From: a virus
Lineage: Duplodnaviria; Caudoviricetes
Length of the DNA: 64,000 nucleotides
IMG/VR virus record: IMGVR_UViG_3300037067_007193
Coordinates: 1-64,000 of that record
Direction: 5' to 3' (one strand)
A model generated the notes under the pieces. It had not been told where the DNA came from. It was given only the letters and a program-made list of their open reading frames with translations, and made no database searches. The position numbers and the translations under genes are program-made. Within the stretch, counting starts at the first letter, position 1. Every line of letters starts with the position of its first letter. Positions 150-22,214 of the stretch are shown here, one piece after another.

Positions 150-224
150 TGGCGGGGCCGGGTGGCTCCCGGCTTGGCAGAAGTCATGTTCTACTGTTCG
201 GCCTCGACAAACCGCCGCCCACCA
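150..224 (-). ncRNA. tRNA-like cloverleaf RNA (element 1)
   Basis: UGGUGGG/CCCGCCA 7-bp closing stem; GUUUG/CGAAC arm; GUAGAA/UUCUGC arm; GCCGG-N7-CCGGC arm; intergenic; loops lack tRNA consensus. Confidence 0.5.
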
Positions 225-980: not shown

Positions 981-1045
981 TGGCGGGTGGACAAGTCTAT
1001 CGGTTGCTAACCGAGTCTCTATGTCGCTTGCCCTCATACCCGCCA
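981..1045 (-). ncRNA. Structured intergenic RNA (element 2, long irregular hairpin)
   Basis: UGGCGGGU/ACCCGCCA, GGGCAAG/CUUGUCC and UCGGU/ACCGA stems; shares the 15-nt 3' segment CCCGCCAGCAGAATT with element 1. Confidence 0.45.
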
Positions 1046-10187: not shown

Positions 10188-11482
10188 CACATGAACAGAA
10201 CGAAGCCGCTGTTGTGTCCTGTATGCTTATGAACGCGGATGCCATAACCGAAGCTATTCAGCAATGCAGGCCCGAATATCTGTCAAACGAAAAGCTCCGC
10301 ACTCTGTACAGCGTGATTGTGTCCCTATATGAGCGCGGGATTGAGGTTGATATTCCCGTCCTAACAGACGAACTGAGAAAGAAAAACCGGTTGCAGGACA
10401 TAGGAGCGCCGTTTGTTTTCGAGGTTGCCCGTCAAGTTGCGGCATGGCAGAATATCGGGCATTACTGTACGCGGGTGCGGGAACACTGGCAGTTAAAGCG
10501 CCTGAAAGAAATAAGCGGAGAGATAGAGAACCAGATAGCACAGCCATTGGTTGACGCGGGTGAATTACTCGACAAAGTGGAAACCCAACTTGTTGCTATC
10601 CGGGATAGTAGTTTACAGCCGACAACCGCGCCGGTAAAAGACGGATTGCAGCAATTTGAATCTGAGCTTGAGGAACGCGGAAAGACTGGCAAGCTACCCG
10701 GCATACTGACAGGACTAAGGTCACTTGACCGCACCACTGGCGGCATGAGAAAGAAAAAATTAATCGTTGTCGCTGCCCGTCCGGGCATGGGAAAATCAGC
10801 CCTTGCCCTCACCATCTGTAAGAATCTGGCGGAACAATCCCCGCCTGTATCCAGCCTGATAATCAGCCTGGAGATGTCGCGAGATGAATTGATCGAGCGC
10901 CTCATGTGTCAGGAAACGGGTTACACGGTTTACGATTTCCGTGAGTCTGAGAGGATAGCAAGCATTGACTGGCCGAAAGTCAACATAGCTCTCAACAGAT
11001 TGTACAGTGATGAGATTTACATTGACGATGCACCGACACACACGCTGTTGGAAATACGGGCAATCGCCCGTAAGTGGAAACGTCAGGCCAATATTGGCTT
11101 GTTGGTAATCGACTACATGCAGTTGATCCATACGCGGGGCAGGACGCGGAACGAGGAAGTTGCAGAGATAAGCCGAGACTTGAAAAGGCTGTCAAAGGAG
11201 CTTGATATTCCCGTTATGGCAATCTCTCAGTTGAGCCGTAAGACAGAGGAAAGGGCCGACAAGCGGCCCTGTATGGCAGACCTGCGGGAATCAGGCAACA
11301 TCGAACAGGATGCGGATGAAATATGGTTTGTCTATCGCCCCTGGACAGCCGGGACACAAGAGATTGACGGGCGCTCAACCGAAGGGCTTGCGATTATTAT
11401 CGTCGAGAAAAACCGGGGCGGAGCGACCGGAGATATTGAGACTTATTTTGACGCGCCGCGTTTTGCATTCCGGGACTTATAA
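10184..11482 (+). CDS. dnaB: Replicative DNA helicase
   Basis: AARPGMGKS Walker A, ISLEMS, VIDYMQLI, ADLRESGNIEQDAD, KNRGG. Confidence 0.95.
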   Translation: MTHEQNEAAVVSCMLMNADAITEAIQQCRPEYLSNEKLRTLYSVIVSLYERGIEVDIPVLTDELRKKNRLQDIGAPFVFEVARQVAAWQNIGHYCTRVREHWQLKRLKEISGEIENQIAQPLVDAGELLDKVETQLVAIRDSSLQPTTAPVKDGLQQFESELEERGKTGKLPGILTGLRSLDRTTGGMRKKKLIVVAARPGMGKSALALTICKNLAEQSPPVSSLIISLEMSRDELIERLMCQETGYTVYDFRESERIASIDWPKVNIALNRLYSDEIYIDDAPTHTLLEIRAIARKWKRQANIGLLVIDYMQLIHTRGRTRNEEVAEISRDLKRLSKELDIPVMAISQLSRKTEERADKRPCMADLRESGNIEQDADEIWFVYRPWTAGTQEIDGRSTEGLAIIIVEKNRGGATGDIETYFDAPRFAFRDL

Positions 11483-11485
11483 CAC

Positions 11486-11519
11486 AAAAAAGCCCGGCTT
11501 TTGACCGGGCTTCCCTTTG
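11486..11519. terminator. Bidirectional intrinsic terminator between convergent units
   Basis: AAAAAAGCCCGG-loop-CCGGGCTT. Confidence 0.7.
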
Positions 11520-11537: not shown

Positions 11538-11747
11538 TCATGCCACGTTTACCCATTTCATGCAGGTTTGAATTGCGTGGTCGTAATCGCCGCTCATCGT
11601 CTCGTTTTGAAACTCCTTGATTTCTTCCGGCGGCACTTCTGCTCGGCGCAGGGCTTCGGAAACCCGTCCGATGATAGAAAAAACATTTCCGTCTTCTCTT
11701 GAAAGTTGTACGTCAACATCAGGATACTTGCATCTTTCTGTTTCCAT
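11538..11747 (-). CDS. Conserved small phage/plasmid protein
   Basis: DGNVFSIIGRVSEALRRA...SGDYDHAIQTCMKWV pattern. Confidence 0.75.
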   Translation of the reverse strand: METERCKYPDVDVQLSREDGNVFSIIGRVSEALRRAEVPPEEIKEFQNETMSGDYDHAIQTCMKWVNVA

Positions 11748-11760
11748 TTGCTCCCCCTGT

Positions 11761-11820
11761 GTTTTGTCCGGACTTGAGACCGGGCTTGTGGTTTACAGGG
11801 CTTGCGCCCTGCTCTCGCCT
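11761..11820 (-). ncRNA. Twister-like self-cleaving ribozyme candidate (permuted, P1 closed by GCAA)
   Basis: GGC-GAGAG-[CAGGGC GCAA GCCCUG]-UAA-ACC-AC-AAGC-[CCGG UCUCAAGU CCGG]-ACAAAA; T1 CUC/GAG and T2 AC/GU pairings fit; P2 imperfect. Confidence 0.45.
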
Positions 11821-11883
11821 TGTGTTGGCGGCGGGTCTCTGTTTTTGTTCATGTGCATCCTCGGCATGTAGCCGGGTTAAGGG

Positions 11884-12075
11884 TTAGCCGTTGTATTCTT
11901 CGCCGAAAATTTCCTCACAGTGTGCTATCCAGTCGTTATTCAGTTCTTCAAGGCAGAGTTCCATAACGCCTGGAACGGCTAAAATTGTTGCCACTTCAAG
12001 GCCAGCTATCCAGCCCGTGAATTTGTCATTGTCGTTGACCATTTCGCGGAGTTCTTTTTGCTTGTCTGGCTTCAT
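11884..12075 (-). CDS. Hypothetical protein
   Basis: 63-aa ORF, SD GGAGGG. Confidence 0.65.
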   Translation of the reverse strand: MKPDKQKELREMVNDNDKFTGWIAGLEVATILAVPGVMELCLEELNNDWIAHCEEIFGEEYNG

Positions 12076-12078
12076 CTT

Positions 12079-12291
12079 TCACCCCTCCACGCGGGCAGAG
12101 CCGCAGACGTTACCGTTGATGTCGCGCAAGGTGTCACAGAAAAGCGGTACGCCCTTTAAAACATTTTCAAAATCTACATTTTCTAAACTGCGGTATTCTT
12201 TCGCTGATCTTTCAAGTATCCGCGCAACCTCGGTTCCGGCGTAAGGATCAAACGCCTCGCCCTTCATGTCAATCTCAATCACCAGCTTCAT
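12079..12291 (-). CDS. Hypothetical phage protein
   Basis: MKLVIEIDMKGEAF...LRDINGNVCG; SD AGGAGG. Confidence 0.75.
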   Translation of the reverse strand: MKLVIEIDMKGEAFDPYAGTEVARILERSAKEYRSLENVDFENVLKGVPLFCDTLRDINGNVCGSARVEG

Positions 12292-12322
12292 TTGATGCCT
12301 CCTGAGAGTTAGGTTTGGTTTA

Positions 12323-12371
12323 TCCATCGACGGGCTTGCGCCCGTTTCGGCCTATGCCTCGTCAGGATGGA
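12323..12371 (-). ncRNA. Type I hammerhead ribozyme
   Basis: UCCAUC-CUGACGA-GGC AUAG GCC-GAAA-CGGGC GCAA GCCCG-UC^GAUGGA: full core, three stems, GUC cleavage triplet. Confidence 0.9.
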
Positions 12372-12372
12372 G

Positions 12373-12792
12373 TTAGTTTCCTTCTGAAAAGTCCGGGGCA
12401 AGGATAACATATCCGCCCCAATCCTTATAAATCCCGGTCAGTTTTTCACTCGGTCCCGTATGCAGCTTGAGCGCATACCCGCGAGGGTCACGGTTGATTT
12501 TTATATCCCCGGCGCGTTGCTTGCCGATAATCGCCGCCACCTTGTCGCGCAAGGCATCCGTCCAGGTGTCGAGTTTATCACCATCAATCCGACCGTCTGT
12601 ACCTTCAAGATCAGGATAAGGGGCCGGATTGGCGTTGCAGTATGCCAGCATAACACGCTCGGCTTTTGCTTCCAGCCGCCGCAGCTTGCGGCACAGGTCA
12701 AACGGGTCTGTTTCCGGCGGTAAGCCGAAAACGCGCTTTAAATTCTCGCCGTGCGCCTCGATTGCCTTGTACATCCTTTCTTTCTTGTTCAT
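12373..12792 (-). CDS. Hypothetical phage protein
   Basis: MNKKERMYKAIEAHG...INRDPRGYALKL...DWGGYVILAPDF. Confidence 0.75.
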   Translation of the reverse strand: MNKKERMYKAIEAHGENLKRVFGLPPETDPFDLCRKLRRLEAKAERVMLAYCNANPAPYPDLEGTDGRIDGDKLDTWTDALRDKVAAIIGKQRAGDIKINRDPRGYALKLHTGPSEKLTGIYKDWGGYVILAPDFSEGN

Positions 12793-12949: not shown

Positions 12950-12978
12950 ATTATAATAATAACAACAAAACTTGTCAA
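12950..12978 (-). promoter_or_regulatory. Consensus sigma70 promoter
   Basis: TTGACA-17-TATAAT, with GAGTCGCA at the transcript start. Confidence 0.8.
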
Positions 12979-13127
12979 GAGTTTGGGAGAGATTTTTTTA
13001 CAAGGCGGTCAATTATCATCCCGATTGACTCCCCTGTCCGCTCCCGCTCCAGCTCCAGGCGCTTAACCGTGTCAGGCAAAACGCTTGTTTGAACCATCCT
13101 AACTTTGTTGCTTTTTGGTCTGGCCAT
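12975..13127 (-). CDS. Small RHH/CopG-like DNA-binding protein (50 aa)
   Basis: MARPKSNKVRMVQTSVLPDTVKRLELERERTGESIGMIIDRLV; below ORF-track cutoff. Confidence 0.6.
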   Translation of the reverse strand: MARPKSNKVRMVQTSVLPDTVKRLELERERTGESIGMIIDRLVKKSLPNS

Positions 13128-13994: not shown

Positions 13995-14350
13995 CAAGCC
14001 AATATAAAGCATTTAAAGCTTTATATATTATATATACCCTAAGATATATAAGGTTTTTAAAAGCCTTTAAGTCTTTAAAGCCTTTAAAAGCCTTTATATA
14101 TATACCTACTCTTAGAATATTATAAGCCTTTGTTCTTTGTCTTTAATAAAGAAAGACTTTATTATGATTAATAAACTTACAAGAAATACCATTAATAAAG
14201 ACAATGGTCTTTTAAATAATAAAGAGGATATTAAAGAAAAGAATAAGAATATTAATACTCTTAATAAAGATAATAATATTAATATTACTAAAGAGAATAA
14301 GAATATTAATGTTGTTAAAGAGAATAATAAAGTTATTGGTACGCCTTTAA
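13995..14350. repeat. Very AT-rich low-complexity tract with TAAAG/AAAGCCTTTA repeats (candidate pac or terminus region)
   Basis: AAAGCCTTTA at 14060, 14077 and 14087; about 11 TAAAG copies; overlaps the 5' part of terS. Confidence 0.6.
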
Positions 14351-22081: not shown

Positions 22082-22214
22082 TGGCTTCGGCGGCGTGGCG
22101 AGAAGGCGGGGGTTGCTCCCTGTAGGTGAAGCCCGTACAGAAAGAGGAACGCTATCCTCTGTAACCGTTGATTAGCGTGGCGGTCCTTGCCGGTTCAAAT
22201 CCGGCCCGAAGCCA
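22082..22214 (+). ncRNA. 133-nt tRNA-like RNA with canonical T-arm and extra arms (element 3)
   Basis: UGGCUUCGG/CCGAAGCCA closing stem; GCCGG-UUCAAAU-CCGGC T-arm; four internal hairpins; no identifiable anticodon arm or encoded CCA. Confidence 0.6.

Follow-up and report, generated by a model that had tools for sequence, protein, structure and literature searches.

A bare type I hammerhead ribozyme and a twister ribozyme in the intergenic gaps of a predicted four-gene phage transcription unit

Why would a phage place a self-cleaving RNA directly behind the stop codon of one of its own genes? The question is raised by a locus on a 75,588-bp IMG/VR viral contig, which is judged to be about 90% complete and encodes a terminase, DnaB, RecT and two integrase-family genes. 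The window, that is, the whole stretch of DNA that was analysed, comprises the first 64 kb (64,000 nucleotides) of this contig. Before the question of purpose can be approached, it has to be asked whether the motif is a hammerhead at all, whether it belongs to a message that could be cut, and whether its placement looks like the work of selection. The first of these points concerns the following features:

12373..12792, minus strand: gene A, an open reading frame of 139 aa with no annotated function
12323..12371, minus strand: minimal type I hammerhead ribozyme (evidence: the sequence itself, a descriptor scan with shuffles and the custom model R1)
12328..12329, minus strand: predicted scissile bond, after C12329 of GUC and before G12328, deduced from the H17 position in the hammerhead consensus
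12079..12291, minus strand: gene B, 70 aa, phrog_9027 (a PHROG with no annotated function), with the Shine-Dalgarno (SD) sequence AGGAGG at 12303-12298

Read along the minus strand from 12371 to 12323, the element is UCCAUC-CUGACGA-GGC(AUAG)GCC-GAAA-CGGGC(GCAA)GCCCG-UC-GAUGGA. CUGACGA, GAAA and GUC follow one another in the order of the hammerhead core, and all 13 of the 13 core positions are intact (C3U4G5A6N7G8A9, G12A13A14, the A15.1-U16.1 pair, and C as H17). Stems I, II and III have 6, 3 and 5 bp, respectively (6 bp for stem III if the A-U pair is counted); a 4-nt loop, AUAG, closes stem II, and a GNRA loop, GCAA, caps stem III. Because stem I is open and stems II and III are closed by loops, the element is of type I, with the topology 5'-I-CUGANGA-II hairpin-GAAA-III hairpin-UH-I-3'. 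The stop codon of gene A (TAA, 12375-12373) ends 1 nt before stem I, and 37 nt separate the predicted cut from the ATG of gene B at 12291. A preliminary description of this DNA had placed a canonical hammerhead, with a full core and three helices, right after a stop codon, and its cut after GUC at 12329/12328, 37 nt ahead of the next start codon; on both points it agrees with the sequence.

How readily would such a motif arise by chance? A descriptor consisting of CUGANGA, GAAA, UH and three perfect helices was run over both strands of the window and matched only once, at 12371..12323. In first-order Markov shuffles the expectation is 0.003 matches per window for a loose form of the descriptor (minimum stem lengths 5, 2 and 3 bp), and none of 300 shuffles reached the quality of the observed hammerhead. 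As far as sequence can tell, the hammerhead at 12371..12323 is confirmed as genuine, with cleavage itself as a prediction.

The Rfam models, on the other hand, do not recognise it. When the whole window was searched at gathering thresholds, no hammerhead family was reported, only Twister-P5, and Hammerhead_1 (RF00163), the check that the preliminary description had proposed, gave no match even at E<=10 in a permissive 1-kb search. The sole Rfam hammerhead match (1 kb, E<=10) was to RAGATH-1-hammerhead (RF03152), whose threshold is 56.3 bits and which scored 27.5 bits here. RAGATH-1 resembles the window copy in its hammerhead core, its short stem II and its phage-type gene context, but membership was rejected on the score and because the model includes an upstream hairpin that is poorly aligned here and lies within the gene A reading frame. 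With RF00163 (clan CL00010) the window copy shares the core, the three-way junction, the open stem I and the cut after GUC; it differs in its 6-bp stem I and in a stem II that is very short, just 3 bp closed by a loop of 4 nt.

A custom covariance model, R1, was built from 14 bare type I hammerheads of viral contigs. It scores the window hammerhead at 59.5 bits (E 4e-16), a value that is partly so by construction, since this copy is in the training set; the model is useful for copies elsewhere. In the entire genome (the window and the remaining 11.7 kb), the window hammerhead is its only match, and no additional ribozymes came out of a permissive Rfam search that covered positions 1-22000 together with the final 11.7 kb of the genome. 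The relatives of the locus, which are described below, fare little better in Rfam: the syntenic hammerhead of locus L007 reaches 32.1 bits with RF00163 against a threshold of 34, so that it and L008 (two copies of one) fall just short, and five others are unmatched. The failure of Rfam at the window hammerhead is a problem of sensitivity and not counter-evidence. Since bare, minimal type I hammerheads mostly escape Rfam, surveys based on it probably undercount phage ribozymes.

Folding predictions are less clear-cut. The minimum free energy structure of the 49-mer is a rod-like alternative (-23.6 kcal/mol, as against -20.7 kcal/mol for the hammerhead fold, by nearest-neighbour calculation), and stem II has a low probability in longer folding contexts. 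No tertiary contact or pseudoknot between stem I and stem II is recognisable, the 6-bp stem I being without bulge or loop, and loop II can pair with the flanks over 3 bp at most, a value equalled by 98% of shuffles. The activity of the ribozyme, or its speed, at physiological Mg2+ is therefore uncertain. Many natural hammerheads show no known tertiary contact (Perreault 2011, PMC3088659).

The motif can also be followed into related loci. Gene A has 121 homologues, none with a Pfam domain. Its structure model is confident (pLDDT 89.6), with no Foldseek match at E<=0.001 and an uninformative best VIA-align Z of 4.3, and a profile search of the PDB returned nothing below E 0.1. About 85 loci encoding gene A relatives were fetched from viral, metagenome and genome collections. 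In several lineages, at 38-48% protein identity, a hammerhead lies 0-6 nt past the stop codon of the homologue (L007/L008/L074/L082/L083, L060, L066/L070 and L067). The core is invariant in these syntenic copies (that of L067 is without C3), while stems I and II are wholly exchanged (in L007 they are AGCCUU/AAGGCU and GUCC-UGAA-GGAC) and stem III, CGGGC/GCCCG, is often kept. Stem I has 5-6 bp in all of these lineages. The layout also recurs: a stop codon, the ribozyme, an A-rich spacer, an SD sequence and a start codon, with 21-37 nt from the cut to the start.

In the model-aligned set, 94.7% of the pair cells hold standard pairs, compared with 65.5% after shuffling and 19-41% if the partners are slid; both sides have changed in 10 of 15 pairs. 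This pairing count is partly circular, since the tools that found the sequences, a descriptor or a model, favour paired bases. No such circularity attaches to a core that stays intact in a syntenic intergenic slot where alignment is otherwise impossible. Could the motif still be a chance or degenerate look-alike, whose GC-rich hairpins act as an intercistronic stabiliser or as a protein-binding site? Such a view would accommodate the sub-threshold Rfam scores, the minimum-energy fold that is not a hammerhead, and the plain GC-rich hairpins that fill the slot in other homologues, but it is made very improbable by the 0.003 matches per window expected by chance, by a core intact at 13 of 13 positions, and by syntenic copies that keep this core while their stems covary.

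The slot can also hold a hammerhead of another topology. L101 (3398-3453) has a hammerhead of the permuted type II, 1 nt past the stop codon of its gene A homologue, and in L084 (1461-1515) the same slot holds a decayed type II hammerhead, in which CUGGAUGG replaces CUGAUGAG. Since the type II hammerhead of L101 and the decayed copy of L084 share the slot, it is the slot that is conserved and not the topology. Rfam detected no other ribozyme class beside the gene A homologues in 50 loci, one sub-threshold type II hammerhead excepted. In L079, L009 (two copies) and L104, a hammerhead is found upstream of the gene A homologue instead.

Some of the collected loci show further arrangements. The two hammerheads of L009 (632-691 and 927-986) have an identical stem I and an identical 27-nt leader with SD sequence, and different genes behind them. 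L026 and L016 have four type I hammerheads each, and those of L026 use one common stem I, GGUUAA/UUAACC, with differing stems II and III. A subgroup of type I hammerheads (L037, L024, L031, L018 and L036) has conserved flanks, ..CAUCUGGCCCGGCA.. upstream and ..CCUGCCGGGGAAUA downstream, which suggests an extended outer helix or a second conserved element. Directly past the stop codon of the gene A homologue, in the slot that holds the hammerhead in other lineages, L053 (784-835) and L103 (1519-1570) have a 50-nt predicted three-way junction (about -23 kcal/mol) that is without a hammerhead core and, in L053, without an Rfam match at E<=0.05.

What kind of message, then, would the hammerhead interrupt? 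Rightward genes for DnaD-like and DnaB-like replication proteins end at 11482, a rightward gene for the small terminase subunit begins at 14137, and a leftward block fills the space between them. In addition to gene A, the hammerhead and gene B, the block includes the following features:

12950..12978, minus strand: perfect sigma-70 consensus promoter, TTGACA-17-TATAAT, with transcription start at about 12943
11884..12075, minus strand: gene C, 63 aa, starting 3 nt past the stop codon of gene B in a translationally coupled layout
11768..11819, minus strand: type-P5 twister ribozyme (RF02684), a full-length match with 49 bits in Rfam against a gathering threshold of 37.6
11538..11747, minus strand: gene D, 69 aa, phrog_1933 (E 3.5e-25), a PHROG with no annotated function
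11481..11512, minus strand: intrinsic terminator with an 8-bp GC-rich stem and a U tract, common to the convergent dnaB-like gene

The predicted unit thus reads: a 5' UTR of ~150 nt, gene A, hammerhead, gene B, gene C, twister, gene D, terminator. Apart from a gap of 81 nt and another of 136 nt, each of which holds one ribozyme, its genes leave no sizeable space between them. The twister lies 503 nt downstream of the hammerhead in the same orientation, and it is the only Rfam twister found in the genome; its cut presumably falls between U11795 and A11794, as read from the U/AA of the twister consensus. An in-frame ATG at 12327, which would make gene B longer, sits within the 3' strand of stem I and is without an SD sequence; the phrog_9027 profile, of 72 positions, suits the 70-aa form. 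Searched against Pfam, NCBIfam and PHROGs, the flanking proteins yielded only these two PHROGs.

The consensus promoter suggests transcription by the host polymerase. The preliminary description takes the unit for an early operon. The phage is probably temperate, and the unit could equally be a moron expressed from a prophage, considering its position as a leftward insert between replication and terminase genes, its moron-like form of promoter, genes and terminator, and the integrases of the phage. No match to the region by blastn or to gene A by tblastn was found in INPHARED, and no host can be inferred from DnaB, because its INPHARED matches are all below 37% identity. In a scan of bacterial genome contigs, all matches were MAG contigs, assigned to many phyla and probably phage sequences binned in error, and they indicated no host.

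Three other elements lie in or near the unit. A 50-aa ORF (12975-13127, minus strand) has by eye the look of a ribbon-helix-helix protein, with no Pfam or NCBIfam match, and its stop codon overlaps the -35 box of the consensus promoter. A GAGTCGCA motif is found 7 nt past the -10 box of the same promoter. In the divergent region ahead of the small terminase gene there is a long hairpin (14043-14102, plus strand), to which Rfam gives weak matches, far below threshold, of a microRNA-precursor look-alike kind.

What can be read directly from the locus and its relatives is that the motif is there, that it is no random occurrence, that it has been conserved through compensatory changes, and how the operon is built. 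The preferred reading is that a real type I hammerhead lies within a four-gene mRNA and, together with the twister, cuts this message into three pieces; its probability is put at roughly 0.7, with cleavage in vivo, the ends of the fragments and the effect on expression being what we infer beyond the observations. Host RNA polymerase would make a transcript of ~1.46 kb, beginning at about 12943 and terminating near 11485. Hammerhead stems II and III would fold locally while this RNA is still being synthesised, and stem I would close last, once its 3' strand has been made. The hammerhead would then cut itself after C12329, and the twister after U11795.

The first piece, of about 615 nt, would carry gene A and bear a 2',3'-cyclic phosphate at its 3' end; owing to the type I layout, almost all of the ribozyme (stems II and III) would remain on this piece and form its structured terminus. 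The second, of 534 nt, would carry genes B and C, with a 5'-OH at one end and the other end in the twister P1 hairpin. Its leader would be 37 nt long, unstructured and A/C-rich, with a strong SD sequence, and its first six nucleotides would be a former strand of stem I. The third, of about 310 nt, would carry gene D, begin with a 5'-OH and a hairpin near the 5' end, and finish at the terminator. In this way the cuts would uncouple the three blocks in their decay and translation, with no need of host RNases and no halt to transcription.

Analogous outcomes are known from T7 early mRNA, which RNase III of the host cuts between genes, and from synthetic ribozyme insulators such as RiboJ: a message is divided between cistrons so that the upstream part ends in a hairpin and the downstream part begins with a defined leader. 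In contrast to RNase III processing, cutting of the present message would be autocatalytic and independent of host enzymes, and it would produce a 2',3'-cyclic phosphate and a 5'-OH rather than a 3'-OH and a 5'-phosphate. The effect of a 5'-OH on RNA stability differs between hosts with RNase E and hosts with RNase J.

The same two cuts might serve another end. Hammerhead and twister could excise the 534-nt B-C RNA (12328..11795) with ends that RtcB can join, and RtcB of the host would then turn it into a circular, exonuclease-proof mRNA. There is hardly any likelihood of this; no RtcB is encoded by the phage, and the ends of the 534-nt piece have no significant complementarity (their duplex, at -15.9 kcal/mol, is matched by 14% of shuffles).

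It is also conceivable that the ribosome takes part. By terminating at the gene A stop codon, it would melt stem I and so time the cleavage or release the downstream piece. The stop codon is 0-6 nt from the first helix, or overlaps it, in all lineages and in both topologies, and stem I is just 5-6 bp throughout, as such coupling would have it; yet tight intergenic packing is normal in phage genomes, so that the abutment may be mere compaction, and the hammerheads of L079, L009 and L104 lie upstream of gene A homologues at other spacings. Coupling to translation is accordingly regarded as quite unlikely, and it is in any case a refinement of the cutting of the message into three pieces, not a replacement for it.

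Is the hammerhead kept for what it does to the message, or does it merely travel with the phage genome? A maximum-likelihood tree of 64 gene A proteins shows that loci bearing a hammerhead are scattered over at least five lineages. The nearest gene A relatives of the window (L095, L096 and L001) are without one, as are L073 and L103, whose gene A protein is nearly that of L007. L067, on the other hand, has nearly the same gene A protein as L066/L070 and a different hammerhead. The genes 3' of the hammerhead are different in each lineage. At most of about 60 homologous loci the slot holds a hairpin only, or nothing, and in many of those without a hammerhead the hairpin is stable and GC-rich. 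Since near-identical gene A alleles (L073, L103) and most homologous loci do without it, the hammerhead is dispensable. From the scattered, swapped and missing copies it follows that it is an exchangeable part of the junction, quickly gained, swapped and lost.

This pattern is what would be expected if the hammerhead were a selfish or neutral passenger, active or recently so, that marks a junction of mosaic recombination between gene cassettes and brings no benefit for expression: its presence is scattered over the gene A lineages, near-identical gene A genes are followed by different hammerheads (L067 and L066/L070) or differ in whether they have one (L007/L074 and L073/L103), the downstream genes change from lineage to lineage, and some copies are decayed (L084, and L067 with its missing C3). 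Against this stands the position of the ribozymes. Hammerheads of two topologies are both found 0-6 nt past the stop codon and 21-37 nt ahead of an SD-led start codon, which points to selection on placement; an unrelated class of ribozyme, the twister, occupies the other gap of the unit; and the core has stayed intact across 38-48% protein identity. The hammerhead as a passenger is, on balance, an unlikely explanation.

If the preferred reading of a message cut into three pieces is adopted, how far does the locus differ from what is known? That phages carry hammerheads, as the preliminary description had remarked, is well established (PMC3088659, PMC6765202). [quoted passage not shown] The window has the arrangement described by Perreault 2011, with two co-oriented ribozymes in the intergenic gaps of one phage gene block. 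Like the clusters of that study and of PMC6765202, it combines small hypothetical phage genes with co-oriented, gap-filling ribozymes of mixed classes in one block. It differs from the Perreault 2011 clusters in having two ribozymes only, one per class, in being delimited as a unit by a consensus promoter and a terminator, and in that its hammerhead is bare, minimal and undetected by the Rfam models.

The preliminary description had gone further, seeing in the hammerhead, a twister-like element about 500 bp away and tRNA-like spacers alongside a systematic self-segmentation of the message. The twister is borne out by its Rfam score. Self-segmentation is upheld in part, inasmuch as ribozymes fill both gaps of a unit that runs from promoter to terminator, but it can hardly be called systematic with one hammerhead and one twister genome-wide. 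The spacers have to be left out of the account, lying as they do more than 10 kb away in other transcription units and being unrecognised by ARAGORN and Rfam. They are these:

150-224, minus strand: tRNA-like element
981-1045, minus strand: tRNA-like element
22082-22214, plus strand: tRNA-like element

All have closing stems of 7-9 bp, UGG(C/U)...CCA, and in the last, of 133 nt, the T arm, GCCGGUUCAAAUCCGGC, looks canonical and there is a 3' GCCA. ARAGORN, run over the window, reported no tRNAs and called none of the three elements, and Rfam gave nothing at 150-224 and 981-1045. Taking the tRNA-like elements and the two ribozymes together, the phage could use several kinds of RNA processing signal.

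What does the locus mean for the biology of these phages? Phage genes punctuated by ribozymes have been known since 2011, and the locus is a clean example of this and not a new phenomenon. Its most likely role, the cutting of mRNA, has been put forward before for hammerheads and twisters of bacteria and phages (PMC3088659, PMC6765202), and it is a hypothesis there and here. The additions are modest: a blind spot of Rfam, a gene A family with two hammerhead topologies in one slot, and a small, delimited unit. That the gene A family repeatedly precedes hammerheads of two topologies, placed right behind its stop codon, supports selection on the cut and not on the RNA fold. With one promoter, four small genes, two ribozyme classes and one terminator in 1.46 kb, the locus is a compact test case for the purpose of phage hammerheads and twisters, a question that goes back to 2011-2014.
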